A DNA stretch of 64,000 nucleotides from a virus (IMGVR_UViG_3300050821_009780:64001-128000), one strand, 5' to 3'; positions 3,473-61,067 are shown, numbered from the stretch's first letter. Notes: generated by a model not told the origin, from the sequence alone. Numbers and translations are program-made.

Positions 3473-3501
3473 AGTATAGGACTAGACTTGGCTCAAGTCA
3501 A
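3473..3501 (-). promoter_or_regulatory. Promoter with palindromic spacer (copy 2)
   Basis: TTGACT-tgagccaagtctagtcc(17)-TATACT; contains perfect GACTTG-AGC-CAAGTC inverted repeat. Confidence 0.85.
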
Positions 3502-3830: not shown

Positions 3831-3859
3831 AGATTACTTATCCGCTTGGCTTGAGTCAA
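3831..3859 (-). promoter_or_regulatory. Promoter with conserved spacer (copy 3)
   Basis: TTGACT-caagccaagcggataag(17)-TAATCT. Confidence 0.75.
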
Positions 3860-4148
3860 GTCCGTGGCTGACGGCCTTCTCCCTTACGTGCCAGAGAGCG
3901 GCGTGCGCGTCGTACCCGTCCGGGACGTCCTCAACGGTCCACCGGCCGTTGTACGGCAGCCGCTCCGCCAGGCGCCCGCCGTGCTGCGGCCAGGTCGGCT
4001 GGCTGCCCTTATCCAGCAGCTGACCCTCCACTCCCGGCGGCACTCCCTGCGGGATACGAGCCATATCAGGCCACTGACCTGCCTTCAGCGGCAGCGTCGC
4101 GGCGAACGCCGGACCATGGTACGGGCTGTGCCAGACGGCGACCTTCAC
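3834..4148 (-). CDS. Hypothetical protein
   Basis: VKVAVWHSPYHG..., GTG overlaps stop of 4145..4558. Confidence 0.55.
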   Translation of the reverse strand: MKVAVWHSPYHGPAFAATLPLKAGQWPDMARIPQGVPPGVEGQLLDKGSQPTWPQHGGRLAERLPYNGRWTVEDVPDGYDAHAALWHVREKAVSHGLDSSQADK

Positions 4149-4558
4149 CCGTCCTCCTCGTCGCCGCGGAAGACCCGGCCCTCGGCGGACAACCGCAGCG
4201 ACTCCTGCCGATCCTTCGCCAGCGCCTTCGCCTGGGCGGGGGAGACGTTGCCGCTGCACACCATATCCATGTACCGGTGCGCCGGGGTCTCCCCGCCCAG
4301 GTCCAGGGTCAGCTTCAGCAGCGCGCAGGGCTGCTCCTGCACCAGCGCGCAGGCGGTGACCGCGCCGGAGAAGCTGCGGCCCTCGGAGGGGCTGTCGAAG
4401 AACACCACCGGGTCGATGCCGCGCAGCCGGACGACCTCCGGCCGGGGCACCGGGAGCGTGTGGGCCTGCGGGCTGTCGGCGGACGTGACGATGCAGCCGT
4501 GCGGGAACAGGCGGTCGAACATCGCCTGGTACTTGCGGGCCTGCTCGGGAGGTTCCAT
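4145..4558 (-). CDS. Hypothetical protein directly downstream of the giant protein
   Basis: 137-aa ORF, TGATG coupling to the giant ORF. Confidence 0.6.
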   Translation of the reverse strand: MEPPEQARKYQAMFDRLFPHGCIVTSADSPQAHTLPVPRPEVVRLRGIDPVVFFDSPSEGRSFSGAVTACALVQEQPCALLKLTLDLGGETPAHRYMDMVCSGNVSPAQAKALAKDRQESLRLSAEGRVFRGDEEDG

Positions 4559-7500
4559 CAGAACGGCGGACCTTCCCCTCCAGAAACAGCAGCATCCTTG
4601 GCTTCCTGAAGGGTATCGAAGGTACCGAGGTACTCAGTGCCATCGTAGGTCATGTAGCCCCCGTACGTGGCCTTCTCGACCTGCAGATCGCCGTTCTTCC
4701 AGGTGGGGTACGCCTCGCCGCCGCCCTTCACCCAGTTGAGGTCGGTGATCTGGCCGAGCAGCTCGCTGACCGTCGGCGGTGCGGCACCCGTCTCCTGGGC
4801 GGCCTGCTGCGCGGCGGCCTGGCCGGACTCGGCGGCCTGGGCGGACGGCTCGGTGGCCCCGGTGTACACCTGGGACTCGGCGAGCGGGTCGAGCAGCTCG
4901 GGGTGCGCGGCGAGGTTGGCCTTGACCTTGTCCACGGACGCCTTGCCGATGTGCTGGACAATCCTATCCTCGACGGGCAGGTAACGGATCTCGGTGATGC
5001 CGTGGTTCTTGAGGTAGGCGATGAGCTCGGCCCGGTCTTCCGCGTAGGACGACTGGACCAGCTCCACGTCGTCGAGCAGGGACAGCGCGTCGGAGATCAT
5101 GGTCTCGTTGCTGCCGCCGCTGTACTTGCGCCACACGTCCGGGTTCCAGTGGGCGTCCTTGCGCCGGTAGACGCCCTCGGCGCTGTACCCGCCCTCGCTG
5201 TACGGTATCTGGTTGCCGAAGTAGTCGTTGTCGTAGGAGTAGTTCCGGGTCCGGGCCAGGGTCAGCGGGCTGAACACGGCGGCGCGGTTATCGGTCACGT
5301 TGAGCCGGGTGAACACGTAGCCGGGGCCGCCGGACTCGTACGGGTTGCCGAGGCCGCCGGCCTCCGTCCCGGCCACCCGGATGAGGGCATCCTTGCCGTA
5401 TGACCCGCCTGCCTTGACGATGTAGGACGCAGCACTGCCGCTGCTGGACTGCCTGATGGGCATGGGCAGGCTCTTGACCTTCGCGGCCAGGTCGAACCGG
5501 TACCAGTCGGGCTTGCCGCCGACAACCGCCGGAGCGGTAGGGTCGAAGTGCTTCTGCCGGGGGAAGAAGCCGCCGCGCTCGGCCCAGTCCGCCACCTGCG
5601 CGGGGGAGGTCAGGGTGGCGAACGCGTCGCGGTACGCCCGCACCTCGGCCTGCGGGTCGGCCTTGCCCAGCGTCTCCAGTGCAGCGATGATCTTCCGGTG
5701 CTCGTTCTTGCCCGGCTTGGCGCCGCCGACAACCGGGTACGCCGTGCCCAGCCTCTCCTGCAGCACCTTCCACACCGGCTGGTCCTTGCTGTCCGCCCGA
5801 TCGTTCATGACGGACAGCAGGTGCCGCCAGTAGAACAGCTCGAAGTCGGGCACCTCGGCCTCGCGCATGTCCAGTCCGGCGAGCTGCAGGGCGGCGCGGA
5901 CGCGCTCCAGCGACGCGGCGCTGCCGTCCTTGCTGGTGAACCGGACGCGGCCCCAGTGGGAGACCTTGACGCCGGTGTCCTGGCCGTCGCCGAACTCGAT
6001 CTGCTCCCCGTCCGGCAGGGTCATCCGCCAGAACTTGCCGGGGTCCTGGTGCGCGCTGGTGTAGCTACCTGGGTTGAACTCGCCGGTGGTCTCGTCGATG
6101 CTGCCCTTGTCGTGCTTGGAGGCGGTGCCGGCCTGCAGCTTGATGCCGAGCGCGGACAGCTCATCCTTGACCTCGGGCTTGGGGGTGCTCTTCGGCAGCC
6201 AGCGGGGCAGATCGCCCTCGCCGAACCCGAACGAGCCTGCCTTGGCGTCCAGCACAGCCGCGATGTGCGACAGGTAGGTCTGGGCCATGTCGAGCAGGTT
6301 GCGGGACTGCTGAACCCCTGGGTCGGTGCTATCCGGGTGGGCACCGACCACGGCTTCTGCCGCCTGCTGCACCAGCTGCAGCTTCTGCTGCACCTCGGCC
6401 ATGGCGTCGAGCTTTCCCTGGTTGTACTGCCCGTCGGTCTTGTGCATGGTGACGCTGCGGGCCGCCGTGATGATCGTGTTGTAGTAGTTCTTTTCCCCGG
6501 CGAGGCCGCCGCGGTCGGGCGAATCGTACGGGGCCTTGCCGGGGCCGTAGCTGTCAGCCGGGTAGCTCACGGTGGTGTCGTCGGCGGGCGCGGCGTCCTT
6601 GCCGCTGTGGCTCTTGAGCCAGCCGATGACCTTGTCGTAGGCGGTGCCCTTGAGGAACGTCTCCCCGTGGGTGACCTTGGCTCCCTGGCCGTCGTTCTGC
6701 TGCCAGAGCAGCACGTGCATATCGCGCAGCTCGGGGCCGCCGAAGAACGCGGGGACGCCGTGGCTCTTGGCGGCGGCGACGTGGTCCAGCAGGCCCGGCT
6801 CGCTGAACCCGGAGTGCAGCGGGGCGCCGTGCGCGTCGGGGAGCCGCTGGACCGGGACCTCGGGCAGCCCGGTGACGCTGCCCTGCTTCAGCACCGGCTT
6901 GTCCGGGGGCAGCGCCTGCCATGCCTTGAGCGCGGCATCCAGGATCGCCTGGTCGCGGGCGGCGACGGTCTTGCTCTCGCTCTGCGCGAGGAGCTGCTTC
7001 GCCTCCTCCAGTGCCACCCATTTCGTCTGCTCGGTCTCCCCGTTGTCCAGCTCCGGGGTAGCGACCGCGCCCTCGGCCTTGGCCAGATAGAAGTAGGAGG
7101 TGGACTGGGTGCCGGTGAAGGCACCGGGCACGTAGCCGACCGGCTGGTACCTGGCGCCCATCTCCTCGGCGGTCTCCCGCACGGCGGCCTGCAGGGAGGT
7201 CTCGCCCGGATCGGCCCCGCCCTTGGAGAAGCTCCACGCGGTGCTGTTGTAGTGGTTCTTGACCTCGCGCAGCTGCACCTGGCCCTGATCGTTGAACACC
7301 ACCAGGCCGTAGCGGGGGTTGTGCCCGGGGGCATCGCCCCACGGGCTGCTCTTGCCGAAGTCGGAGGAGGCCCCGGCGTACCCGGCGTCCTGGTAGACCT
7401 GCGCCCACAGCTTGGTGAAGTCGTCTGCGAGGCTGTTCTTGCGGCGCAGCACCTCGTCGATGAGCGCCTGCCTGGACCCGAGGGAGCCGAACTTGGTGCG

Positions 7501-10500
7501 GTGCGCGAAGCCCTGCTCCAGGATGTTCTGCACGCTGGCGTCGGACACGTTCTGAATCTTGCGCGCCTGCTGGATGACCTGGAGGAACGCCTGGTCGGCA
7601 GCGTCCTTGGTGACCTGGTGGTTGCGGATGCCGTCGTACAGCCGGGTGTAGACGAGCTGGGTCATGGTGTCCATGGCGCTGGTGCCGGCCAGGCCGGGCC
7701 AGTCCATGTTGCCCCAGGCGCGGCCCTTGTCGATGCCGGCGATGTGCCCGTCCGGCGTCTTGATCATGTTGTTGGCGGAGCTGTCATCGTTGGACAGCAC
7801 CCAGTCGAGCAGGTGCTCGGACGCGATGTCGGCGACCTGCGCGGGGGTGAACGCGGACCAGGGCGGCAGGTCGGTGTAGTAGCCGAGCGGCTCGCCGGGG
7901 ATGGCCTTCTGCGCCTGCACCGGGCTGCCGCCGAACGCGGGGTCGGTCAGCAGCTGGGACTCGGCGGTCCGGAACCCGAACAGCTTGCCGAGCCGGTTGG
8001 CGGCGTGCTCCTGCTCCAGCCGGAACAGCCCGCCCCCGGCGCTGCTGGAGGGAGGCGCTGGCTTGACGTACCAGGTGCTGGTCTCCCCGGTGTAGGGGAT
8101 GGTCCTGGTGGCCTTCCACACCTCGTGCCCGTGGCTGGGCATATCCCCCGTGGGGATCTTCTTCCACACCGGGACGGACTGCTCGGCGACGGCCTTGACG
8201 TGCTCGTTATCGAGCCACTTCTGGATCGCCTGCTTCTTGTAGAAGGTGTAGTCCAGGACGTAGGCGAGGGTGTTGCCCATCTCGTCGGCGAGCTGCTGGA
8301 GGTAGGGGGTGACCTCGGCCTCGTGGTCGTCGGCGAACGCCTGCACAGCGGTCTCGGACCACTCGTCGGCGGGGGTGCTCGCCTGCACGTACGCGTCGTA
8401 GGCGTTGGCTGGCTGGAGGCCGTCGGTCCAGACGGGCGGCTCGGTCTTGGGAGACTGGCCCTGGCCGAACCGGTCGTTCGCGGTGCCGGTGAGCTGGTCC
8501 ACCGCAGCCTGGTCGTGGCCGCGGTGCGCCTTGACGACCATCTCCCGCTCGTAGGGGTACAGGTGCTCGGCGTGCTGGAAGCCCATTTTGATCAGGTAGT
8601 TGGCGACCTCTGCGGCGGGAAGGTTGGCCAGCCCGGCGGAGGACCAGGTGCCGGGGATGTCCTGGCTGGCCGGGACCTGGTGCGGGTCGAGCGGGGACCA
8701 GGTGACCTGGTGGGTTTCCGTGTTGTCCGGGGCTCCGGGGTGGGCGGGGGAGACCTTGCCGCCCTTGGCGTCCAGCTCGAAGACAGCCTTCATGTCCCCG
8801 GCCTTCCACGCCTTGGCCCACAGCAGGAGATCGTAAGCCGACAGTGAGGACAGGTGCGTGCCGACCACCTGGCCCTTGCCGAACTGCTGGGAAATGTCCT
8901 TGATCTTGGCGATGGTCTCAGTCTTGGTGCCGAGCATCCCCGAGTCGGGGAGGAACCCGGTGTAGGGCTGCGCCCAGCCCTGCGGGGTGAAGGTGAAGAT
9001 GTCCTTGGCAGAGGTGACGCCCTCCGGCATGGTCTTCAGGAAAACGGGGCCTTCGGACTTCTCTGCCTTGGCCGCCTTAGCCGGGACTGCGCCTGGTTCG
9101 ACCTTGCTGACCTCCGCGCCCTCCGGCAGTCCGGGCACGGCGAGCAGCTCGGTCAGCAGCCCGGTGACTGCGGCCTTCTGCTTGTCCCCGGTATCCCCCT
9201 GGTGGTCGGCCATGAACTGCTTGCCGAAGCCCTTGTAGCTGTTCCACTTGACGAAATCGTCCCCTGCCAGGAACTTCTGGAACTCCGGGACGAACTGCAG
9301 TCCCGGGCTGTTGTTCAGCGTGTCGAGCAGCGCCTGAATCTCGTCCCTGGTCTTGATATCGCTGCCCCAGATGTGGTAGCCCGTCGGCTTGGTCCCCGGC
9401 TCGACGACGGTGGTGCCATACTTGTCGAGTACGGTCCCGGACTGCATGAGCGCGTCTACCGTGTAGTCCGGGACGACATTCGGGGCGGCCCCGTCGTTGG
9501 ACTTCCACTGGGCGCTGCCATCGCTGAAGACGACAAGCTCCCCCGCTGTTTCCGGAGCCTTCCCGGCGCCGCTCCACAGTTTGAGGTCACTGGCAGGAGC
9601 CAGCACGGTGGCGTAGGCGACCTGGTCCGGGGGCTGCCCCGCCTGCGGGAACGGGACGCTTGAGTACTGGGTGGCCTTCTCCAGCTGCTTCGCGGCGGCG
9701 GCCGGAGTCAGCTCCTTGCTGCTGCCGTCGGTGGCGAAGTAGATGTACTTGCCCCACGCCTTGGTGCCGTACTTCCAGAAGTCGGAGTTGTAGCCGCCGA
9801 CCTTGACGGGCTGCACGTGCAGGTAGGACTTGCCCTTGGGGTTCTTCCAGTACCCGGCCCCGAACAGCTTGCCGTCCACGTTGACGGCGGCGGGCACGAC
9901 GTTCGCCTTGACCGCCTGCAGCAGCTGGTCCTGCAGCTCGGGCGACGGGGCCGCCAGGTCCCCGCCCTGCGGGTGGTAGGACACCTCCAGGGTCAGCGGG
10001 TTGACCTTGTAGTACTCGTCGGTGCTGCTCTGCAGGTACCCGCCGTGCCAGTTGCCGTACTCGTGCGAGATGTACTCGGTATCGCTGCCCTGGCTGCCCT
10101 TCTCGGCCAGCTTGTAGGCGGCGGCGAGCAGCCAGGTCGGGAAGAGCTTTTCGCTGCCGTGCTCGCTTATCGCCTGCCCGGCGGTCATGGCCCCGAACGA
10201 GACGGTCTTCAACGCGTCGGCGACCTCCTTGCCGTGCGCAGCCTCCTCGACGGACGGCGGCTCCTTCGGCGTCAGGGAACTACCGTTCAGGTCCTTATCG
10301 CTGACGTAGTACGACGGAGCCTTCTTGACCTGAGTGTTACCGCTGTAGCTCTGGATGTACCACCACTGACCGGACGGGTCGCGGGCATAGGCGCCACCGT
10401 AGGGTCCGGTCTTCTCGTAGACCACCGAGCCGGGCGGGAACTCCCCGACCAGCACCCCGCCCTTGAGGGCGGGCACGGGAGACTCGGCGGGCTTGTACGA

Positions 10501-12951
10501 CGGCTCGTCTGCCGGGATAGGGACCGGAGACCCTCCTGGCCCGAGTCCGGGTGCCTCCGGCTCCGGAGCAGCAGGCGGCTCCTCGGCGGGCTTGACGCCC
10601 TGCTTCAGGTAGAGCAGCACCGACTCCGGCTCGCGCGGGAACAAGGTGCCGCCCGGGGCGTGCATGAGCACCCGGTGGTCCGGGGTGACCTCGTAGAACA
10701 GCTCGCCGGGGGCACCGAGGGTGCCCTCAGTCGGCTTGGAGGTGGTGGTCTCCCAGCTGCCGGCGTCGTTCTTGTAGAGGTACTGCTTAGTATCCAGCGC
10801 GCTGGTGTAGACCAGCAGCCGGGCCAGGTGCTGGGCCAGGGTCGTCGCCTCGTGCGGGTTGTAGAGATCTGTCGGCTGAAGGTCGGTCAGCTTCTCGTCG
10901 ATCTCCTTCCACTGCGGGTTCTTCTTCCACTGCGCCGCCGTCGCCCAGTCCGGCAGCCGGGCGGCGGCGGACGGCTCGGGGGCCTGCTCCGCAGCGGCCT
11001 GGGACTTATCCTGCGCGGCCTCGGTCCCGCCCTGCGGCTCCAGCCAGATGTGCACAGCATTCCACAGCAGCGTGTCGGCGCTGGTCGGCTCGCCGCCGAA
11101 CATGTCGTGGTAAGTGGCCTTCAGCTGCGGGGTGACCTTGTAGTACGGCACACCATCTGGAGCAACCGGCTGGACTCCGAACTGGCCCGCCACGGGCGTC
11201 GTATAGTAGTCCTGGCCGAAGTCCGCGGCGTTCTGCGCGGCCTTGGCCATGGCACCATACGCAGTGCTGTACCAGCTCTTCTTGATGTTGCCGTTCTTGG
11301 CCAGGTCGTACAGCTCGGCGGCCTCGGTGTGCCCGGTGGCGTCGTCGGCCTTGGCGAGCAGCCCGGCCTTCTCGGTCAGCGCGGCGATGAACACCGTCTT
11401 GGCGTAGCCGAAGTGCTGCTGCTTGGTGCCCTTCTGCTGCGGCAGGTGCTCGGTATCGGGGTGCTGGTCCTCGTAGGCGTGGATGACGGCCCAGTAGTCG
11501 GACTCGGCGAGGGGGTTGCCCTTGGCCTTGAGCACCTGCTTGATCGCGGTGGACTTGGCGGCGGTCAGCGCGTCCACCGCATCCTGCACCTGCTCGGCGG
11601 TGGCGGTGACCCCGCCCAGCTCGAAGGTGTGCGGGGTGAGTAGCTGAGCGTGCTCCGCCTCGGCCTGCACCTTGTCCTGGGCGGCCTGCAGCGCATCCTG
11701 CTCGGCCTCGGTGTGCGCCAGGTGCGCGGCCCGCCCGGCCAGGTGGTGGATGACCGCCGACTTGACCTGCCCGACGTGCTCCTTCTTAGTGCCGGGAGCG
11801 ACCTTCAGCTCGGGGTGCTTGCTCAGTTCCTGCTGAGCTACCTGGTGGTAGTCCATCGCTGCCAGCGCGTGGCCGGCCTTGGCGAGGGGCTGCTTGACGG
11901 CGGTGGACTTGTCGTCCTGGAGGATTTTCAGGGCATGCTGGATCTCGTCCTTGGTGACGGCGAGCGGCGGGCCCTCCTTAGCAGCAACCTCGGCCTTAAG
12001 CTTGCCGGGCTGGCTCTCGCCAGGGACGGGCAGCGGCGCGTGCTGCTCCGCCTGGTCGTCGTCCGGGACAATGGCACCAGCCTTGAGCCAGGCGTCCTGA
12101 TGCTGCTCGGCTGGCTCCTTAACCACCTCGCCGCTGTGGAGCACAAGGTGCCAGGCACCTTGCGGGTCCTTAGCCCACTTGCCGTGCAGGTTCTTATCAT
12201 CCGCGTTGACTGCCTTGTAGACCTTCCAGTCAGCGGGTACCCAGGCGGCGTGCTTGCCGTTAAAGCTGACCGATTTCTGCGGCGGTGCCTCGTCCAGCTT
12301 CTTCCAGTGCTGGGCGAGGATCTCCTGAGCGGTCTTAGCGGTCGGCAGGGCCGACGAATCGGCCGGGTGGTCCGAGTGGAACAGGACGTGCTCGGCAGGC
12401 TTGCCGTCCTGATCCTTCTTGACGATAACCTTGGGCGCGGCCTTGACCGCCGCCGGGTTGTGCACGTCGGTGCTGTTCGGCACGTGCACATCGAGGTCCT
12501 TGTGCACGGCGAACTCGTGGTTGCCGGACTGGACCCACTTGTGGGTGCCGGCCTCGACCGCCTGGTGCGCGTCCTTGTCGGCCTTATCCGGGTCCTTCCA
12601 CTGGTTGGCGACCCACTTGGCCTCGGAGGTGTCGTAGATGAAGTGCGACGGAGCGCCCTTGACGTAGTGGGCGGTGCCGCCGTGCGCCTCGGAGGGAGCG
12701 TGCTGCGGGTGCGGGATGATCAAGCTGCCGATGGGGGCCTTGTAGAACGCCTCGCCGAGAGCGGAGGCGACCTTCTTCGGCGGCCCGTGCTGCCCCTGCA
12801 GCCCGGCAGCCTTCTGCGCGGCATCTTGGGCAGCCTCGGTGGTGGCTGCGGCCTGCTGGGCGATGGTGGCCCCGGGCAGCGCCGCAGCGGCGGGGTTGCC
12901 TGCCAGGTAAAGCAGCCCGAGCGTCAGGGCCTGCTGCTTCGTGAGGGCCAC
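4558..12951 (-). CDS. Giant polyvalent virion-type protein (2797 aa): internal repeats, HipA/PI3K-like kinase, Nudix hydrolase, possible C-terminal ADP-ribosyltransferase-like domain
   Basis: Kinase motifs WYVKP...EHAANRL...DWVLSNDD...NNMI...IDKG (~7400-8100); Nudix box GGADPGETSLQAAVRETAEEMG (~7160-7225); C-terminal GG.GYVFTR...SNETMI; located just after MuF and portal. Confidence 0.8.
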   Translation of the reverse strand: MALTKQQALTLGLLYLAGNPAAAALPGATIAQQAAATTEAAQDAAQKAAGLQGQHGPPKKVASALGEAFYKAPIGSLIIPHPQHAPSEAHGGTAHYVKGAPSHFIYDTSEAKWVANQWKDPDKADKDAHQAVEAGTHKWVQSGNHEFAVHKDLDVHVPNSTDVHNPAAVKAAPKVIVKKDQDGKPAEHVLFHSDHPADSSALPTAKTAQEILAQHWKKLDEAPPQKSVSFNGKHAAWVPADWKVYKAVNADDKNLHGKWAKDPQGAWHLVLHSGEVVKEPAEQHQDAWLKAGAIVPDDDQAEQHAPLPVPGESQPGKLKAEVAAKEGPPLAVTKDEIQHALKILQDDKSTAVKQPLAKAGHALAAMDYHQVAQQELSKHPELKVAPGTKKEHVGQVKSAVIHHLAGRAAHLAHTEAEQDALQAAQDKVQAEAEHAQLLTPHTFELGGVTATAEQVQDAVDALTAAKSTAIKQVLKAKGNPLAESDYWAVIHAYEDQHPDTEHLPQQKGTKQQHFGYAKTVFIAALTEKAGLLAKADDATGHTEAAELYDLAKNGNIKKSWYSTAYGAMAKAAQNAADFGQDYYTTPVAGQFGVQPVAPDGVPYYKVTPQLKATYHDMFGGEPTSADTLLWNAVHIWLEPQGGTEAAQDKSQAAAEQAPEPSAAARLPDWATAAQWKKNPQWKEIDEKLTDLQPTDLYNPHEATTLAQHLARLLVYTSALDTKQYLYKNDAGSWETTTSKPTEGTLGAPGELFYEVTPDHRVLMHAPGGTLFPREPESVLLYLKQGVKPAEEPPAAPEPEAPGLGPGGSPVPIPADEPSYKPAESPVPALKGGVLVGEFPPGSVVYEKTGPYGGAYARDPSGQWWYIQSYSGNTQVKKAPSYYVSDKDLNGSSLTPKEPPSVEEAAHGKEVADALKTVSFGAMTAGQAISEHGSEKLFPTWLLAAAYKLAEKGSQGSDTEYISHEYGNWHGGYLQSSTDEYYKVNPLTLEVSYHPQGGDLAAPSPELQDQLLQAVKANVVPAAVNVDGKLFGAGYWKNPKGKSYLHVQPVKVGGYNSDFWKYGTKAWGKYIYFATDGSSKELTPAAAAKQLEKATQYSSVPFPQAGQPPDQVAYATVLAPASDLKLWSGAGKAPETAGELVVFSDGSAQWKSNDGAAPNVVPDYTVDALMQSGTVLDKYGTTVVEPGTKPTGYHIWGSDIKTRDEIQALLDTLNNSPGLQFVPEFQKFLAGDDFVKWNSYKGFGKQFMADHQGDTGDKQKAAVTGLLTELLAVPGLPEGAEVSKVEPGAVPAKAAKAEKSEGPVFLKTMPEGVTSAKDIFTFTPQGWAQPYTGFLPDSGMLGTKTETIAKIKDISQQFGKGQVVGTHLSSLSAYDLLLWAKAWKAGDMKAVFELDAKGGKVSPAHPGAPDNTETHQVTWSPLDPHQVPASQDIPGTWSSAGLANLPAAEVANYLIKMGFQHAEHLYPYEREMVVKAHRGHDQAAVDQLTGTANDRFGQGQSPKTEPPVWTDGLQPANAYDAYVQASTPADEWSETAVQAFADDHEAEVTPYLQQLADEMGNTLAYVLDYTFYKKQAIQKWLDNEHVKAVAEQSVPVWKKIPTGDMPSHGHEVWKATRTIPYTGETSTWYVKPAPPSSSAGGGLFRLEQEHAANRLGKLFGFRTAESQLLTDPAFGGSPVQAQKAIPGEPLGYYTDLPPWSAFTPAQVADIASEHLLDWVLSNDDSSANNMIKTPDGHIAGIDKGRAWGNMDWPGLAGTSAMDTMTQLVYTRLYDGIRNHQVTKDAADQAFLQVIQQARKIQNVSDASVQNILEQGFAHRTKFGSLGSRQALIDEVLRRKNSLADDFTKLWAQVYQDAGYAGASSDFGKSSPWGDAPGHNPRYGLVVFNDQGQVQLREVKNHYNSTAWSFSKGGADPGETSLQAAVRETAEEMGARYQPVGYVPGAFTGTQSTSYFYLAKAEGAVATPELDNGETEQTKWVALEEAKQLLAQSESKTVAARDQAILDAALKAWQALPPDKPVLKQGSVTGLPEVPVQRLPDAHGAPLHSGFSEPGLLDHVAAAKSHGVPAFFGGPELRDMHVLLWQQNDGQGAKVTHGETFLKGTAYDKVIGWLKSHSGKDAAPADDTTVSYPADSYGPGKAPYDSPDRGGLAGEKNYYNTIITAARSVTMHKTDGQYNQGKLDAMAEVQQKLQLVQQAAEAVVGAHPDSTDPGVQQSRNLLDMAQTYLSHIAAVLDAKAGSFGFGEGDLPRWLPKSTPKPEVKDELSALGIKLQAGTASKHDKGSIDETTGEFNPGSYTSAHQDPGKFWRMTLPDGEQIEFGDGQDTGVKVSHWGRVRFTSKDGSAASLERVRAALQLAGLDMREAEVPDFELFYWRHLLSVMNDRADSKDQPVWKVLQERLGTAYPVVGGAKPGKNEHRKIIAALETLGKADPQAEVRAYRDAFATLTSPAQVADWAERGGFFPRQKHFDPTAPAVVGGKPDWYRFDLAAKVKSLPMPIRQSSSGSAASYIVKAGGSYGKDALIRVAGTEAGGLGNPYESGGPGYVFTRLNVTDNRAAVFSPLTLARTRNYSYDNDYFGNQIPYSEGGYSAEGVYRRKDAHWNPDVWRKYSGGSNETMISDALSLLDDVELVQSSYAEDRAELIAYLKNHGITEIRYLPVEDRIVQHIGKASVDKVKANLAAHPELLDPLAESQVYTGATEPSAQAAESGQAAAQQAAQETGAAPPTVSELLGQITDLNWVKGGGEAYPTWKNGDLQVEKATYGGYMTYDGTEYLGTFDTLQEAKDAAVSGGEGPPF

Positions 12952-12961
12952 CGTACTCCCC

Positions 12962-13180
12962 TCACTCGTCCGACAGGTACAGCCCGGGCACCTTCTCCAG
13001 CAGCCGGGTCACCATCTCAAGATCGGGGCCGGTGACGGTCAGGCCCTCGCGGTGCAGCTGCTCCAGCGAATCAGGCCCGAAGTCGAACTCCGCCTGGCTG
13101 CCGCGACCGTACTCGGCCAGCGCAATGAACGCGTTCGCGTAAGAGACGGTGCTCGCGGCACGGTACCGGACGGTGGTCAC
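12962..13180 (-). CDS. Hypothetical protein (72 aa)
   Basis: Fills the gap between MuF and the giant ORF; GTGA overlap. Confidence 0.55.
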   Translation of the reverse strand: MTTVRYRAASTVSYANAFIALAEYGRGSQAEFDFGPDSLEQLHREGLTVTGPDLEMVTRLLEKVPGLYLSDE

Positions 13181-14187
13181 GTCCCTAGTACCTTCCGCAG
13201 CCGGGACAGTGCCTGACCCAGCTCGTGGGTGGCGGCCTTGAGGAAGTGCAGCAGCGCCTGGTACTTGTCCTCGGGCAACTCCCGGACATCGGAGGCGGCC
13301 AGGAGGCTGCCGGAACCTGGCCGGTCCGGGCTACCTGAGACTTTCTGATGGGGAGCAGCAGCAGTCTTGGCGCCCCCCTGGCCGCTCCCTGATGGTACCT
13401 GCCCGGCCTGGGGCGGAGGAAGATCAGCGACAATCACTGCGCCGCACCGGCACCGGGGATGCCGGGGCGGGCCGCGCAGCACGCCGTGGTAGAGCCGGGG
13501 CGGGCGGGTGAGCCGCCCGTGCCCGGCCAGGTCGGCCGGCTCCCCGGCCGGGAAGTTGCCGTGCAGCGGGACGACCATGCCGTTCAGGGCCCGGCACCAG
13601 TGGCAGGTGCGGGCATCGGGCGGCGCGGGCCAGGAACTGCACCGCCACTGCTTCCACACCCGCTCCCCGGACTCCTCGCGCAGGGTGCCGTCGGCGATCT
13701 CCTTCTCGGTGCGAGCGGCGACGGCAGCGGACTCCAGGGACAGCCGGTTGCGGAGCGCCAGCTCGAAGCCGACCTGGAGGACGGCAGCCCGGACGTGCGC
13801 GGCGCGCTCGCGGGCGGACTCGGCGACCGGGGCCTGGCGGGGCGGGGTGACGCCCGCCCGGAAGTGCCGGGTTTCCACCGAGGTGTGAGCGGCCCGGATC
13901 TCCGCCCGCAGGCGGCCGAGCGCATCATAGGAGCGGTCCACGTCGTCCACCAGCCAGGACAGGTAGTCGTGCGGTGGCCCCCCGGCGGCAGCCCACGCCT
14001 GGCGCACCGCCTCGGCAGCGGTCTCCCGGGCGCGATCGAGGGTCTCCTGGAGCACCGCGTCCACGTCCGGGCGGGTCAGCAGGGCGGAAGCGGACCCCTG
14101 CGGGTTGTTCTGCACCAGCAGCCCGATATACCGGGCGGCGTAGGCGAACGCCTCACGGACGCTGCGGCTCAGCTCCTCCGGGGTCAC
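13177..14187 (-). CDS. MuF / SPP1 gp7-like minor head protein
   Basis: WKQW...DARTCHWCRALNG...PPRHPRCRC motif; near the portal. Confidence 0.75.
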   Translation of the reverse strand: MTPEELSRSVREAFAYAARYIGLLVQNNPQGSASALLTRPDVDAVLQETLDRARETAAEAVRQAWAAAGGPPHDYLSWLVDDVDRSYDALGRLRAEIRAAHTSVETRHFRAGVTPPRQAPVAESARERAAHVRAAVLQVGFELALRNRLSLESAAVAARTEKEIADGTLREESGERVWKQWRCSSWPAPPDARTCHWCRALNGMVVPLHGNFPAGEPADLAGHGRLTRPPRLYHGVLRGPPRHPRCRCGAVIVADLPPPQAGQVPSGSGQGGAKTAAAPHQKVSGSPDRPGSGSLLAASDVRELPEDKYQALLHFLKAATHELGQALSRLRKVLGT

Positions 14188-14476
14188 GCTGCGGATGATC
14201 GCCCGACGCCGCCTCGTAGGCGGCGTGCAGCTGCTCGTACTGCCGATAGTCCACCCGCCCGGAGTGGAAGGCGCTGTTCACCTCGCCGAAGCTGCCCGGC
14301 GGCGGCAGCTCGCCCAGCTGCCCGATGGCATCGGCGAGCCTGGTCTGGAAGGCGGTCTTGCCGGCGGCGCGGGGCCAGTTCATGCCGCGGACCTGGGCGC
14401 AGGCTTCGGCGAGGCTGATGCGCCCGTTCTCCAGGTCGTCGAGCAGCGCGGACAGCCGCTTCTCCTGATCGCTCAC
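14153..14476 (-). CDS. Small helical protein after the zeta-domain gene (possible antitoxin)
   Basis: VSDQEKRLSALLDDLENG..., GTGA overlap with the upstream stop. Confidence 0.5.
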   Translation of the reverse strand: MSDQEKRLSALLDDLENGRISLAEACAQVRGMNWPRAAGKTAFQTRLADAIGQLGELPPPGSFGEVNSAFHSGRVDYRQYEQLHAAYEAASGDHPQRDPGGAEPQRP

Positions 14477-17022
14477 GGTGCCCCCGGAGACTCGATGCCG
14501 GCCACCACCATGGCCGCCTTCCATGCATCCTCGCTGAACCCCGGCTCCGTGCTGGCCTGCTCGCGGACAGCATCCAGATCCAGGTCGTCCATCCCCGTGC
14601 CGGCGGTCATAGCTACCTGCCCCTTCTCCGCTGCCCGGGCCTGCGCCTCGGTAGCCCCTACGTACTCCATGATGTGGTAGTCCGGGTGATCGAACTTCTC
14701 CGTGTTCCAATCCGGTGCGGCCAGCGCCGGGTCGAACGGGAAGACCTGCTTGTCCCGGAACCCGAGCGACGCGTACAGCTTGGGCAGCACGGGACCGTAC
14801 GCCTCGATGTAGTTCGCCCCGTGCTCACTGACGGCCAGCCTGAGCAGCGCCAGCCCGGTGCCCTTATCCCCGGAGGTGTTGAACAGCCCGGTCGGCTCGA
14901 TGCGCCCATCCTTGTGGTCGTGGATGAGTATCCCGGCCTTCCCGCCGGCTGCGAGGATAGCTGTCATGCCCGCGTTCCTGATGTCCGCTGCGGTGTAGTG
15001 GTTGACGAAGGCACTGTACGGGCTGCCCTCGAATGCCTTGTTGAGCGTGCTCGCGAACTCCTCGGGGCTGGCCAGCCGAGTGCCGGGCGGCCCCGACCCG
15101 GCGGCGCGGGCTGCCTCCTGCGCCCGGGCCTCCTTGCTGCCGGGCTGCAGCGTGCGCAGCAGCGCCTCCACCGACGGGATGCCGGCGGGCACGGACGGCG
15201 CGGACTTCTCCGCCAGCCTGGGCGCGGTCCCGTTGTTGTCCCAGAGCTGCCAGTCGGCGAACCGGGACTTCAGCGCCTCGAAGACGAGCTTGTTGCGGGT
15301 GATGCCGCGGACGACCTCCTGGGAGCGGATCAAGTCGGGCGGCACGTACCGGCCGCCGAGCGGATCGCGTCCCTCCCGGTAGGCTTCCAGGCCCTGCCGG
15401 TAGCGCTTAGCGGCGCGCTGCACGGCCCGTTCCACCGGGCTATCCACGAACACGCCGCGAGTGGTGTACCCGTGCTGCTCCAGGGCAGCGAGGCGCTGGG
15501 AGACGCTGGCCTCGTCGGCCATGGTGATATCCCAGGCGATGTTCTTGCCGCGCTCGGCCAGCAGCCGGGCGGCCTGGTCGGCCAGGTAGGACGACTCGTC
15601 GTGCACCAGCGGGGAGGCTTCCAGCGGGGACAGCCCGGCGACCTCGGGGACCAGCCCGCGCCGGGCCAGCTCGGCCTTGAAGTCGTCGGGGTTGACGACG
15701 GCGTAGTCGCGCAGGCTGATGTCCGGGATCTGCTTGAGCACGGTGGTCTTGCCGGCCCCGCCGAGCCCGCCCATGACCAGCGCCCGGTGCTCGGACGGCA
15801 CGGATACCTGCCTGGCCAGGAAGTCCTGGAGGATCTGCTGGTGCTCCAGGGCGCGCTGCGGCAGCCAGGAGTAGCCGCCGTCGCGGGAGTGCAGCACGGA
15901 GGTGGCCTGGCCCTTGCCGGCGGCGGCGTTGACCTTCTCCTGCACGTCGCGGGCGTGCACGGCGTACTGCTCGTCGGTGAGCGGCGCGTACTGGCCGGGG
16001 GCGGCCTGCCCGGCGGCAGCGGCACGGGCGGCGGCCTGCGCGGCGCGGGCGCCGGACTCGGCCTTGCGCAGCTCCCCGAGGTGGTCGCGGAGATCGGACT
16101 GCCGCTGGCTCTCCTCGCGCTGGGCGTAGCCTTCCAGCCGCCGGTTGGCCTGATCCAGCGCGGAGTCCTGGGGAGAGGGTGCCTGCTGCGGCAGCGGCTG
16201 CGGCACGTGCGCGTGCGCGTGCCGGCTGAGGGTGTCCCCGGCCAGCGGGGTGACGAACCGGGAGCCGAGGTGCGGGTGGACCGCCTGCGCGCCCGTGGGG
16301 GGCGGCGGCAGCTTAGGCGGCTCGGGCTGCACGGCCGGGTGCTGCGGGCCCTCCTGAAGCCGCTCCGCCGCGCGGGCGGCCCGTTCGGGGACGGCCCCGG
16401 TGAGGCGGCGGGTGCGGGTGGACCTGACCCCGGACTGCTTGTCGATGTCCCGCATCCGGGACTGGACGTGGGAGATGCTATCGCGGACAGACTGCTTCTG
16501 CTGGTCGGTCTCCGCACGGGGCAGCAGCTGCTCGGCGGCGGTCCGGTGCGCCTCGTGCAGCTGCTCGTAGCCCTTGGCCAGAGCGGGACTATCCGGGTCG
16601 GACAGGTGCTGGTGGGCGGCGTCCACGTGCCCGGCGAACTTCTCAGCAGACGGCTTGTCGATATCGTGGAAGCGCTGGCTGCCCCACAGCGCCTGGCCCT
16701 TCTTCGCCCACGCCTGCTGCGCGGCCAGCCACTTGGCCTGGCTGGTGTCGTCGATGACGTGGCCGGGGGCACCCTGGACGAAGTGCGGGTCGTGGCCGCC
16801 GGGGTGCGGCAGGTCGCTGCGCAGCTCGGTGTGCGCCTTGACGTGCTCGGGGATGACCTTGCCCTGCTTGGTCTTCTGCAGCCGGGAGAACGGCCGGACC
16901 TGGAAGCTGGCCAGCTCCAGCGCCTCCGGGTCGGCGGCCAGCTCCAGCGCCCGCCCGGCGCTGATCTCCTCGACCAGATCGCGGGCCAGCGCGGCCAGGG
17001 CCTCCTCGGCGGGACTGGTCAC
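14473..17022 (-). CDS. Polyvalent protein: zeta-toxin-like P-loop kinase plus C-terminal GNAT-like domain (849 aa)
   Basis: ALVMGGLGGAGKTT Walker A, VVNPDDFK, VHDESS, NIAWDITM, GGRYVP, LWDN (zeta family); GTGLALLRLAV...EAYGPVLPKLYASLGF (GNAT-like). Confidence 0.8.
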   Translation of the reverse strand: MTSPAEEALAALARDLVEEISAGRALELAADPEALELASFQVRPFSRLQKTKQGKVIPEHVKAHTELRSDLPHPGGHDPHFVQGAPGHVIDDTSQAKWLAAQQAWAKKGQALWGSQRFHDIDKPSAEKFAGHVDAAHQHLSDPDSPALAKGYEQLHEAHRTAAEQLLPRAETDQQKQSVRDSISHVQSRMRDIDKQSGVRSTRTRRLTGAVPERAARAAERLQEGPQHPAVQPEPPKLPPPPTGAQAVHPHLGSRFVTPLAGDTLSRHAHAHVPQPLPQQAPSPQDSALDQANRRLEGYAQREESQRQSDLRDHLGELRKAESGARAAQAAARAAAAGQAAPGQYAPLTDEQYAVHARDVQEKVNAAAGKGQATSVLHSRDGGYSWLPQRALEHQQILQDFLARQVSVPSEHRALVMGGLGGAGKTTVLKQIPDISLRDYAVVNPDDFKAELARRGLVPEVAGLSPLEASPLVHDESSYLADQAARLLAERGKNIAWDITMADEASVSQRLAALEQHGYTTRGVFVDSPVERAVQRAAKRYRQGLEAYREGRDPLGGRYVPPDLIRSQEVVRGITRNKLVFEALKSRFADWQLWDNNGTAPRLAEKSAPSVPAGIPSVEALLRTLQPGSKEARAQEAARAAGSGPPGTRLASPEEFASTLNKAFEGSPYSAFVNHYTAADIRNAGMTAILAAGGKAGILIHDHKDGRIEPTGLFNTSGDKGTGLALLRLAVSEHGANYIEAYGPVLPKLYASLGFRDKQVFPFDPALAAPDWNTEKFDHPDYHIMEYVGATEAQARAAEKGQVAMTAGTGMDDLDLDAVREQASTEPGFSEDAWKAAMVVAGIESPGAP

Positions 17023-17144
17023 GACTCGCTCCAGGTGCAGTTATTGCAGCACAGGAACTCCTCGCCGGAAGCTGTAACCTCGGTGCCTAGGTCAGCGCTG
17101 CCGCACCGGGGGCAGTGCTCCTCGCACTCAGCGGAATCCGGCAC
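17019..17144 (-). CDS. Tiny Zn-ribbon protein (41 aa, not in ORF track)
   Basis: VPDSAECEEHCPRCGSADLG...FLCCNNCTWSES, stop overlaps the zeta gene GTG. Confidence 0.5.
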   Translation of the reverse strand: MPDSAECEEHCPRCGSADLGTEVTASGEEFLCCNNCTWSES

Positions 17145-18723
17145 CGCTGCCTCCGCCCGACGGCCCCTGCCCGCTCACCGGCTGGCTGTTCCCGCCGCCT
17201 CCGCCTGCGGCGGGCTGCGGCGAGGGCACGGCGGGAGACTGGGCGGCCATGTTGCCGGCGGTGTTCCCGGCCATGACCGGCATGCCGCCCATCATCTGCT
17301 GCTGGGCCTGGTCCTGCATGAGCTTCTGCTGCTTCTCCCGGTCGGCCTTGATCTTGTCGTAGTCGATGTCGAACGCCAGCTCCTCGCTCATCCGCTGCTC
17401 CAGCTCCAGCATGAACTCAGGGGTGACGTTGGCACTCTGCCCTGCTACGGCCAGCTTGTCGAAGGTGTCCTGGATCGCGGCCTTCTGCTCGGCGGTGAGC
17501 GCCCCCCACTTGAACTCGGGGTACTTCTCGGAGCCGAAGTTCCAGTCCACGAACCGCGGGAAGATGCAGTTGTTAATGACCTCGGCCATCTCCTCCAGGA
17601 TGCCCTCCAGCATCATCATGAAGGTGGTGTCGTTCTGCTTGCCGAAGTCCACCAGGGTGGAGTCGCCCTGGCCGGCCCCCGCCCCGGAGTCGGAGTCGAA
17701 CCACTGGGCCAGCACCGACTTGGACATCTGGCTGTTGTGGTGGTTGATGAGGCCGAGGAAGTCGAACCGGGAACTGGTCTCGTTGATGGACTGCACCGTC
17801 CAGTCGGCGGACGGGACGACCATGTACTGGGCCAGGCCGAGCTGGGACAGCGCCCGGGTGAAGTTGTTCTTGTCCTGCGGGGTCGGGTTGGGCACCATGG
17901 TGCCGACCCGCAGCCCGACGGCGGCGCGCTGCGCGGCCAGGTGCGCGATGAAGTAGAGCTTTTCCTTCTTGTCGTAGTGGTAGAAGGCGCTCTCGAACAT
18001 GCTCACGCCGTAGAACGGGCGCTCGGCCTCGTCGTGGGCGAAGTAGACGGCGGTGTCCTTGGGGATCTTCACGTCGATGGTGCGGCCCTGGAAGAACGTG
18101 CGCTGCCGGAAGCCGTTCCACCGGCCCTGGCCGTCGAGCAGGAAGGTCAGCGTCTCGGCGGGGCGCCAGTCCAGGGCGCGCAGCGTGGTCTTGCCCTTGT
18201 TGGGGCCGGTCTTCGGGGTCCAGTAAATCATTTCCCAGGCGCTGAACCCGGAGAACAGGGCGAGCAGCATCTGCTTGACGAACCGGGTGAAGCTGAACTC
18301 CATGCCGCCCGCGGACGGCGGCAGGAACAGCAGATCCTTGCAGAACTGGGCTTCCTCGGTGCCGCCGACCACCCCGTCGCGGGGAATCACGTCGGAGTGC
18401 TTGAGGCTGGCGAGAATCGGCTTGGTGATGAGCCGGAACAGGGCCCGGGCCTGGCCGTCGCGCCGCCGCATGGTGACAAGCTGACGGACCGTGACTGGAT
18501 CGTCCCTGAATAGCTCCCAGCTATCCCGGTACGGAGTGGCGAACGGGAGAAAGTACGGGACACCGACGCTGAAGTTGTCCGCCTCGGGCGGCGGCTGGGG
18601 CAGGGCCTGCGCGTCCTCCAGGACATAGCCCTCCTGGCCGAACCCCTGGGACGTGACTCCCATACCGCCCGGAGGGGACAGCCGTCCCTCGGATGAGCCG
18701 AAGCCGCTACCTGGTGTCGTCAC
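17128..18723 (-). CDS. Portal protein (DUF935 / Mu gp29-like)
   Basis: MRRRDGQARAL, ALFSGFSAWEM, PFYGVSMFESAF, INHHNSQMSKSVL, FPRFVDWNFG...YPEF; downstream of terminase. Confidence 0.8.
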   Translation of the reverse strand: MTTPGSGFGSSEGRLSPPGGMGVTSQGFGQEGYVLEDAQALPQPPPEADNFSVGVPYFLPFATPYRDSWELFRDDPVTVRQLVTMRRRDGQARALFRLITKPILASLKHSDVIPRDGVVGGTEEAQFCKDLLFLPPSAGGMEFSFTRFVKQMLLALFSGFSAWEMIYWTPKTGPNKGKTTLRALDWRPAETLTFLLDGQGRWNGFRQRTFFQGRTIDVKIPKDTAVYFAHDEAERPFYGVSMFESAFYHYDKKEKLYFIAHLAAQRAAVGLRVGTMVPNPTPQDKNNFTRALSQLGLAQYMVVPSADWTVQSINETSSRFDFLGLINHHNSQMSKSVLAQWFDSDSGAGAGQGDSTLVDFGKQNDTTFMMMLEGILEEMAEVINNCIFPRFVDWNFGSEKYPEFKWGALTAEQKAAIQDTFDKLAVAGQSANVTPEFMLELEQRMSEELAFDIDYDKIKADREKQQKLMQDQAQQQMMGGMPVMAGNTAGNMAAQSPAVPSPQPAAGGGGGNSQPVSGQGPSGGGSGAGFR

Positions 18724-18769
18724 ACCGAGGTAGATCGGTGCCAAGCGGGCAGCTTATCCCCGCTAATCC

Positions 18770-49407: not shown

Positions 49408-49436
49408 AGCCTAGTCACTGACTTGGCTCAGGTCAA
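49408..49436 (-). promoter_or_regulatory. Promoter with palindromic spacer (copy 5)
   Basis: TTGACC-tgagccaagtcagtgac(17)-TAGGCT. Confidence 0.8.
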
Positions 49437-59872: not shown

Positions 59873-60994
59873 CTATGGCTCCGTGTACAGGCGGCGCACG
59901 GCAGCGAGCACGGTATCTACGGCTGCGGCGTCCAGGCCCTTAACGTGCCAGAGTTCGGCCTCCAGCAGCTCCTCACGGGTGAGATCGGGTTCCGGAGCTG
60001 CCGGGGCAGGCAGATACCCCTTCTTCCGGTCCACGCCCTCCAGGACAGAGCCCTCGTACTTCCAGCCGGGCGCAGCCTCGGCGAGCATCCGCTCCAGCCG
60101 GTGGATGACGGCGCGCTTGACATGGTCGGCGGGCTTCTTGTGCGTCTGCTGGTCCATCCCGCACTCCGGGTACAGCTCGCGCTCGGCCCTGGAGAACGAG
60201 TGGTACCAGCCCTTGGGGGCCTCCAGCTGGAGACGGTGGGCGGCCAGCGGGCGGTGCACGTGGTTGCCCTTGGCATCCCTGAGCAGCTCGACGGCCTCGC
60301 GCACCTCGGCAGCGGTCAGCTCCACGCCCTCGACGTTGAACTTCTCCTGCGCAGGAGCGGCCATCCCGTCGCGCACCGCCTGCCCCAGCTCGCGCATGGC
60401 CCGGCCGGCCTGGTTCCGGCTGAGGCCGAGGCGGCTCAGCGGCGGAACGGCACCATCTTCCTTCAGGTGCCCGGCGATCTCGCTGAACAGCGAGAAGAGA
60501 CTGACCGGGCCGTCCCAGTCGTCCGGCACGGTCGCCAGGTAGTCCCTCATCCGGCCGACGAACTGATCGTCGGCCAGCGACGGGTAGTCATCCCAGCTCT
60601 CGCCACCGAACAGCTCCACCCAGCGGGAGCCGCCCTCGCCGGCGACCGTATCGCACAGCAGCAGCTCGCGCCCGGAACGCCGGGAGACCTGCTCGCGCTT
60701 GCCTCGCATGTACAGCGCCACCTTGCCGGACAGGAACGCCCGCCAGGAGACGCGCTGCCCGGTCTTGGCACTGACGAACGAGGAGTCGTACTGCCGGAGG
60801 GCGTTGCGGCCCTCGGCGTTCACCGCGACCAGGAGCCGCTCCATTATGTCGGCAGCGGCGTCCTCCGCATCCTGGGTGTTGCCCCCAGCGCCCAGCAGCT
60901 TCCGCGCCAGGCCCTGAACGTACGCACCATCCTGCCGGAAAAACTCGTCCGCATCTGCGGGCGCGGCATACTTGCCGAAATCACCCATCCCCAT
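59873..60994 (-). CDS. Sigma70/ECF-like sigma factor with an atypical C-terminal domain
   Basis: FFRQDGAYVQGLARKLLG...QDAEDAAADIMERL...YD...SWRAFLSG resembles ECF region 2; weak HTH LGLSRNQAGRAM. Confidence 0.6.
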   Translation of the reverse strand: MGMGDFGKYAAPADADEFFRQDGAYVQGLARKLLGAGGNTQDAEDAAADIMERLLVAVNAEGRNALRQYDSSFVSAKTGQRVSWRAFLSGKVALYMRGKREQVSRRSGRELLLCDTVAGEGGSRWVELFGGESWDDYPSLADDQFVGRMRDYLATVPDDWDGPVSLFSLFSEIAGHLKEDGAVPPLSRLGLSRNQAGRAMRELGQAVRDGMAAPAQEKFNVEGVELTAAEVREAVELLRDAKGNHVHRPLAAHRLQLEAPKGWYHSFSRAERELYPECGMDQQTHKKPADHVKRAVIHRLERMLAEAAPGWKYEGSVLEGVDRKKGYLPAPAAPEPDLTREELLEAELWHVKGLDAAAVDTVLAAVRRLYTEP

Positions 60995-61038: not shown

Positions 61039-61067
61039 ACCCTAGTCCTCGACTTGGCTGAAGTCAA
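61039..61067 (-). promoter_or_regulatory. Promoter with palindromic spacer (copy 6), upstream of the sigma-like gene
   Basis: TTGACT-tcagccaagtcgaggac(17)-TAGGGT. Confidence 0.8.

Follow-up and report, generated by a model that had tools for sequence, protein, structure and literature searches.

Why does one domain occur both in a sigma-like transcription factor of a phage and, in tandem, in a giant protein of the phage head module, and what could it do in each? The question is raised by a 64,000-nucleotide stretch of viral DNA (the window), bases 64001-128000 of the 143,503-bp IMG/VR virus record IMGVR_UViG_3300050821_009780 (CheckV completeness 100%). The GC content of the window is 68.6%, and nearly all credible genes lie on its minus strand. 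An earlier note on this stretch had aligned by eye the C-terminal part of the sigma-like protein (P0002) with two segments of the giant (P0001) and had proposed that a virion protein primes early transcription and later hands over to the sigma factor. We found that the sigma segment and the two giant segments are one genuine homologous domain of ~88 residues, placed as follows.

59873..60994, minus strand: gene of the sigma-like protein P0002, a 373-aa open reading frame (ORF)
4558..12951, minus strand: gene of the giant P0001, a head-module polyvalent-type protein, a 2797-aa ORF
60071..60343, minus strand: shared domain, sigma-type copy, sigma residues 218-308 (BLASTP, Smith-Waterman, class-only profiles)
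11716..11979, minus strand: shared domain, giant copy 1, giant residues 325-412 (hmmsearch E 2e-28; genome profile search E 3.7e-34)
11353..11628, minus strand: shared domain, giant copy 2, giant residues 442-533 (hmmsearch E 5e-26; genome profile search E 6.7e-29)

BLASTP aligned sigma residues 226-300 with giant residues 332-404 at 35% identity (E 2e-7), and a pairwise comparison of the two giant copies gave 36% identity (E 9e-13). In a genome of this GC content, whose proteins are Ala-rich and helical, one alternative is a chance or compositional likeness between helical segments. We tested Smith-Waterman scores against 2000 composition-preserving shuffles, which yielded z values of 12.9 for sigma versus copy 1, 7.1 for sigma versus copy 2 and 15.9 for copy 1 versus copy 2; none of the 2000 shuffles matched the observed score. 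With the whole sigma protein set against the whole giant, the top local alignment fell in the shared-domain region (z 9.3). Profiles built from a single class of copies avoid circularity, and with E values scaled to 1.84e9 sequences, the profile of sigma-type copies recovered P0001 at E 5.7e-29 and 38 of 38 giants at E <= 1e-3, while the reciprocal profile of giant-type copies recovered P0002 at E 7.6e-9. The best 150 listed profile matches comprised the three carrier size classes and short fragments. Together, shuffles, class-only profiles and the distribution of profile matches exclude chance similarity of the sigma and giant segments, a reading that is already refuted and to which we give practically no credence. 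The alignment drawn by eye was therefore correct, with scores well above those of shuffled sequences.

Predicted structures point the same way. AlphaFold models of the sigma copy and giant copy 1 have the same order of helices (one of 13 residues, a short one, one of 11-12 residues and, after a variable loop, one of 16-17 residues), and the sigma copy model additionally has an N-terminal beta-hairpin. Model confidence (predicted local distance difference test, pLDDT) is 84-95 over most of the sigma copy, falling to 58 where the variable loop leads into the last helix, and 80 for giant copy 1. On these models, the shared domain is mostly helical, consisting of a short beta-hairpin and four or five helices. 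Database searches assigned it to no named family. Pfam showed no recurrent family among 110 members, PHROGs had no family for P0002 and only nudix families for P0001, no NCBIfam model matched the shared domain, and a PDB sequence profile search gave a best E of 0.16 and no family. Structure searches with the isolated domain model returned background only (VIA-align, best Z 4.7; Foldseek against PDB, E at least 0.84; BFVD, E at least 1.3; ESM Atlas, a template-modelling score of 0.58 to an unnamed viral protein), and a language-model Atlas search produced scores of at most 0.84, which is the noise range. As the earlier note had judged by eye, the domain belongs to no named family; it is a new one, a confident small fold without structural neighbour.

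Within the sigma family, the shared domain has a mean column identity of 0.54 compared with 0.55 for sigma region 2 (sigma2), and the sigma-type copy contains 17 invariant residues among 19 homologs. Being as conserved as sigma2, the domain is under the same constraint as the core and is part of the working protein, not a spacer. Across the three classes of carrier described below, conserved positions are mostly hydrophobic; the polar exceptions are one Tyr, which opens the third helix, and one Lys, which opens the last helix after a loop that is basic or rich in Gly (giants, GTKKEH; sigmas, THKKPA or GGAGNGH; early proteins, GRGAAGRH). No catalytic-looking motif is present. Describing the module as basic, as had been done at first, was an overstatement: mean net charge is +2.6 in sigma-type and +3.0 in giant-type copies, and spans +1.4 to +3.0 over all classes, so that the domain is only mildly basic at about +3.

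Its distribution is restricted. A profile search of 1.84 billion cluster representatives retrieved just 194 proteins at E <= 1e-3: 90 are of sigma size and, with few exceptions, have a single copy at residues ~205-315; 38 are giants of at least 2000 aa, in which two copies are the rule and some have three, usually at ~220-600; and 49 are short proteins, either fragments or stand-alone forms. Three domain architectures emerge, namely a single copy behind sigma2 and sigma region 4 (sigma4), giants encoded beside or fused with MuF, and small early proteins rich in cysteine. In a maximum-likelihood tree of 110 copies, the giant and sigma types separate with a Shimodaira-Hasegawa-like approximate likelihood ratio test (SH-aLRT) value of 95, and copy 2 has a clade of its own (SH-aLRT 99); this sister-clade split indicates that the architectures are old and stable and did not arise by recent shuffling. 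Using tblastn, we found no match to the sigma protein or the tandem region of the giant in 50,697 deposited phage genomes. Judged by its portal (48.6% identity), the closest phage in culture is Microbacterium phage Magritte (OR553905.1; 133 kb). It encodes a 1991-aa hypothetical protein in the head-module slot of the giant (L046 12048-18023) and carries neither a copy of the shared domain nor a match to the sigma-like protein. The domain is confined to a metagenome-only clade of high-GC phages of about 125-150 kb.

A whole-genome profile search located a further copy in this phage, outside the window.

G000:C1:135356-135622, minus strand: fourth domain copy (E 6e-13), in the gene at locus L018:1054-1770

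This copy forms the N-terminus of an early protein of ~238 aa with about 31 homologs, bringing the phage to four copies in three proteins (one in the sigma protein, two in the giant, one in the early protein). Five cysteines are invariant in the early family, one inside the domain beside the conserved Tyr and four in a C-terminal C-x9-C-x5-CGTGxC motif, which is followed by an invariant RPxNH; judging from this pattern, the early protein may bind a metal or an Fe-S cluster. We counted co-occurrence in ten related IMG/VR records of 124-152 kb, seven of them at least 97% complete. All ten genomes carry the domain exactly twice, in a sigma ortholog and in an early protein (~250 aa), 10-19 kb apart, and N-terminal homology of the sigma orthologs to P0002 was confirmed in five of the ten. 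In genome G001, the genes for an SNF2 helicase, a conventional-looking second sigma and DnaB come downstream of the early-protein gene. Searching seven of the ten genomes with the giant revealed no homolog beyond matches through the shared domain itself. The conserved pair is thus the sigma protein and the early Cys protein, both domain-bearing in 11 of 11 genomes, and the giant, which among these genomes carries the domain only in the phage of the window, is a lineage-specific third user. Since the domain is limited to the sigma and early proteins in the ten relatives, a handover from virion protein to sigma, which had been proposed as the heart of the system, is not its conserved core, and that proposal is weakened.

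The joint presence of a sigma-borne copy and a copy in a small Cys-rich protein in every genome, and the tandem duplication in nearly all giants, would both suit a self-association module whose copies pair with one another, in tandem within the giant and in trans between the sigma and either the early Cys protein or the giant. Domain mimicry of this kind would amount to an anti-sigma-like switch, in which the early protein, or the giant made late, holds the sigma, releases it or keeps it sequestered. There is precedent for such an arrangement, as fusion of an anti-sigma factor can give rise to an extension of an extracytoplasmic function (ECF) sigma factor, and some anti-sigma factors are based on zinc or Cys (PMC8999054). 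Against this, about 35% identity is left between the sigma-type and the giant-type copies, which belong to separate old clades, and with a giant homolog absent from the seven related genomes searched, sigma-giant pairing cannot be the conserved function. We regard self-association as unlikely.

The sigma-like protein P0002 can be divided as follows.

60647..60976, minus strand: sigma region 2 fold, ECF-like, residues 7-116 (VIA-align and sub-threshold sequence matches)
60572..60646, minus strand: sigma2-sigma4 linker, residues 117-141 (column identity, pLDDT)
60344..60571, minus strand: putative sigma4-like helical/helix-turn-helix (HTH) region, residues 142-217 (structure alignment, one Pfam match)
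59876..59980, minus strand: conserved C-terminal two-helix tail, residues 339-373 (invariant E345, W349)

From N- to C-terminus, the layout comprises sigma2, a conserved linker, the sigma4-like region, the shared domain, a variable linker and a conserved C-terminal helical hairpin; the hairpin (339-373) was not found in the giant. The family includes 37 metagenomic homologs, none with a precomputed Pfam domain. VIA-align searches with the P0002 model (pLDDT 75.8) returned mostly chains of sigma-factor domain 2 in the top 25 rows, matching model residues 5-116 and including AlgU (Z 7.5, root-mean-square deviation (rmsd) 2.9, 82 residues aligned), SigK (Z 7.4) and SigC (Z 7.1, rmsd 2.1, 76 of 89 residues). 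A VIA Z below 8 is weak by itself, and the sigma2 call rests on the uniformity of these matches plus matches in sequence. P0002 scores 14.1 bits against Sigma70_r2, where the cut-off is 24 (E 0.041), and 11 of the 19 family members matched this Pfam family (PF04542) at sub-threshold scores (best E 7e-4), with no other Pfam family recurring in more than two of the 19. NCBIfam matches were to ECF sigma models only (E 3e-4 to 0.03), and the top PDB profile match was region 2 of M. tuberculosis SigE (E 0.3). On the predicted model, the sigma assignment holds at the level of fold, with consistent sub-threshold sequence matches, in line with what the earlier note had claimed.

The note had also placed the shared domain after sigma region 2 and a weak HTH, and this order is supported: a putative sigma4-like helical/HTH region follows the sigma2 fold. 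Sigma chains of holoenzymes align over model residues 12-217 with a Z of 5-6.5 across both domains, the sigma4-like UPF0122 chain 1xsv aligns at 142-217 (Z 4.9), and Sigma70_r4_2 was matched in just one of 19 members (E 0.013). The linker between the two regions is the most conserved stretch of P0002 (mean column identity 0.63) and is modelled as disordered (pLDDT 33-38). It contains the invariant residues W125, W134 and D135, with invariant C114 and D115 just upstream, and may be a functional linker or finger element. The sigma-like gene is flanked by a DnaB-like helicase gene on one side and by genes for a HolB-like clamp-loader subunit and PolA on the other, an order with replication neighbours that is retained in a 150-kb Logan contig. 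A second sigma-like gene lies outside the window (G000:C1:130399-131064, minus strand, locus L019; a 245-aa frame) and is an ortholog of a 227-aa G001 protein with weak matches to Sigma70 r2, r3 and r4. These phages encode two sigma-like proteins, and the shared domain is in one alone.

Considering architecture, conservation and precedent together, we tentatively favour the reading that the domain is a non-catalytic docking module bringing all its carriers, otherwise unrelated proteins, to one partner, probably the transcription machinery. The partner would most likely be a protein such as host RNA polymerase or an RNA polymerase-bound factor, a preference that follows from precedents (PMC8999054, PMC5512222), from finding no DNA-binding fold and from the low charge. 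In the sigma protein, the domain would serve as an integral third domain, much as functional C-terminal extensions do in some ECF sigma factors. Through it, the early protein would link its Cys cluster, as a sensor of metal or redox state, to the common docking site, and giants entering the cell would have their NUDIX and other enzymes directed there. We count in support of docking the homology of the copies, their restricted distribution over three architectures, the joint presence of the sigma and early proteins in each of the 11 genomes, conservation at the level of sigma2, the old sister clades and the lack of a catalytic-looking motif. Three observations weigh against it: no cultured phage carries the domain; the basic or Gly-rich loop before the invariant Lys would also suit binding of phosphate or nucleic acid; and the early protein, with a small N-terminal domain and a metal-cluster domain, resembles in layout a small DNA-binding regulator.

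The last two observations lead to the alternative that the domain binds nucleic acid directly, either phage DNA near promoters and operators or RNA. The sigma would thereby gain a DNA contact beyond sigma4, the early protein would be a small metal-sensing transcription factor and the giant would be tethered to the incoming genome. Such a role would agree with the mildly positive charge in all classes, with the universally conserved Lys at the N-terminus of the last helix and with the regulator-like early protein, and DNA-binding modules are among those described in polyvalent proteins (PMC5512222). Moreover, a palindromic operator candidate overlaps host-type promoters in this phage, including that of the sigma gene.

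61039..61067, minus strand: TTGACT-N17-TAGGGT, the host-type promoter immediately upstream of the sigma gene, with the palindrome GACTTCAGCCAAGTC overlapping it (read from the sequence)

The palindrome pattern has eight matches in the window compared with 1.58 expected and recurs 4 to 17 times per genome in six of ten relatives, where a reversed control pattern had none; as a sequence, it looks like a conserved operator for a dimeric regulator. Further matches include 22-41, 3485-3499, 3848-3862 and 49420-49434. The palindrome is found in six of the ten related genomes and the domain in all ten, which counts against nucleic-acid binding; by itself, this co-distribution test does not decide the matter. 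Only a single basic residue is conserved across classes, and no HTH, winged-helix, ribbon-helix-helix or HeH/SAP chain was among the best structure matches in PDB, BFVD and the ESM Atlas (VIA Z <= 4.7, Foldseek E > 0.8), a missing match that does not exclude such a fold. We consider direct nucleic-acid binding possible but doubtful.

The third carrier, the giant, places the domain in a different setting, which is defined by the following features.

6976..7320, minus strand: NUDIX hydrolase domain, giant residues 1878-1992 (Pfam PF00293 E 2.7e-16; PHROG nudix families)
13177..14187, minus strand: MuF-like head protein gene, 336 aa (Pfam Phage_Mu_F E 3.4e-6, 28.2 bits against a cut-off of 29.6)
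17128..18744, minus strand: Mu-type portal protein gene (Pfam Portal_Mu E 1e-31)

The genomic setting agrees with the view of the giant as a putative virion-type protein. Its gene stands in the head module after those for portal and MuF, the MuF-like gene being its upstream neighbour with a 72-aa ORF between them, and related giants occupy the same slot. P0041 is encoded between a Zeta-toxin gene and capsid genes; P0100 directly follows the portal and has its own N-terminal MuF domain plus a GNAT domain; and P0122 likewise opens with a MuF domain. NUDIX is the sole catalytic domain of P0001 confirmed by Pfam, and relatives carry NUDIX, GNAT or AAA_5. Among NCBIfam models, those closest to the NUDIX domain describe RNA pyrophosphohydrolases of the RppH type (E 2e-7, well under their cut-offs), a similarity in sequence that hints at an RNA 5'-end or a nucleotide cap as target. 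A possible extra internal repeat with a YYKVxP...YH motif at ~9650-11350 of the window (minus strand, giant residues ~535-1100) is marginal in pairwise comparison (E 0.049) and not established. Large, multi-domain, head-linked and equipped with an effector enzyme, the giant fits the polyvalent protein class (PMC5512222); by analogy, we expect that it is packaged in the virion and delivered with the DNA.

This setting suggests another role for the domain, as a signal for head incorporation or ejection by which the sigma and early proteins would enter the virion alongside the giant and reach the cell with the injected DNA. Domain-bearing giants in the MuF slot of three lineages, two of them with an N-terminal MuF domain, agree with such a signal. 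Nevertheless, in 10 of 11 genomes the sole carriers are encoded in the early/replication region, and the head modules of related genomes work without any domain-bearing giant. In addition, the sigma gene of this phage lies behind a host-type promoter, and the domain is internal in giants, not terminal. We judge a head signal to be very unlikely. Docking, by comparison, would allow the carriers to act in stages, as a takeover relay at one site of the host transcription machinery used by the injected giant, then by the early Cys-cluster regulator and then by the ECF-like sigma, with the giant an optional first stage in some lineages. As a complete scheme, we hold this relay to be rather unlikely.

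Known systems offer partial parallels to the docking reading. In ECF sigma factors, C-terminal extensions regulate through conformational change or partner binding, and in those with such an extension, the sigma2-sigma4 core leads into a further conserved domain on which activity depends or by which it is regulated (PMC8999054). P0002 has this arrangement, with a conserved domain after the putative sigma4-like region (218-308) whose column identity of 0.54 equals that of sigma2, and SigG1 is among the structural matches of its sigma2 part. Its extension is not of a described type (SnoaL-like, TPR, Cys-rich CRD, WD40 or fused anti-sigma), as judged by no Pfam family in 110 members and no sequence or fold match in PDB. 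P0002 differs further in being phage-encoded, in having a core that reaches sigma models only below threshold and in having an extra domain that recurs on two further proteins of the phage. Enzymes are combined with non-catalytic domains in the polyvalent proteins that phages and conjugative elements encode (Iyer, Burroughs, Anand, de Souza, Aravind 2017, PMC5512222). The giant resembles them in its great size and many domains, in its location beside MuF or fusion with it, and in combining enzymatic domains (NUDIX, and GNAT in a relative) with uncharacterised ones. Having no Pfam match, the shared domain matched none of the LPD families of that study that Pfam may hold. In the literature, we found no description of a polyvalent-protein domain that doubles as the C-terminal domain of a sigma factor.

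In T4 late transcription, the sigma-like gp55 and gp33 have a common docking element for the sliding clamp gp45. PDB entry 7d7d, from the structure search with the P0002 model, may be compared with this system. As in T4, a sigma-like protein and a second small transcription protein have the same element, for which we propose docking here, and the P0002 gene sits among clamp-loader and replication genes. The T4 element is, however, a short C-terminal peptide with a known partner, whereas here it is a folded domain of 88 residues that is also found in a head protein. For the giant, the closest models would be injected or early phage modifiers of host RNA polymerase, namely the T4 ADP-ribosyltransferase Alt, a phage-head effector, and the T7 kinase Gp0.7 (cited in PMC5512222). 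These enzymes enter with the DNA or are the first to be produced, and their target is the transcription machinery, which might also be the giant's if its domain docks there; their catalytic domains are different.

Sigma factors with extra C-terminal domains and polyvalent head proteins of phages are both already known. New, as far as we could find, is a folded domain that a phage sigma has in common with an early regulator-like protein and with a multi-enzyme protein probably delivered from the head. The analysis defines a clean new family with 194 representatives and three architectures, and flags a conserved pair, the sigma and the early Cys-rich protein, that had gone unnoticed. Should a single partner serve as the dock for all carriers, it would probably be a control point for host takeover in large, high-GC phages known only from metagenomes, and the domain would be a handle for finding it.

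The cargo encoded around the giants adds to this picture of the head module. In the window, genes are ordered portal, Zeta-toxin protein, MuF-like protein, 72-aa ORF and giant.

14473..17022, minus strand: 849-aa protein with a Zeta-toxin/AAA_33 kinase domain (Pfam Zeta_toxin E 1.6e-18)

Among relatives, P0098 (699 aa) is a domain-bearing N-terminal fragment of a giant that runs into an AAA_5 ATPase domain (MoxR/dynein-type), and an ADP-ribosylglycohydrolase gene lies just downstream of P0041 (L043 17354-18289), from which it appears that the enzymatic cargo around the domain differs by lineage. The Zeta-toxin-domain gene, placed between the portal and MuF genes, has a counterpart upstream of the related giant in L043, and its 849-aa product is probably another head-delivered effector.

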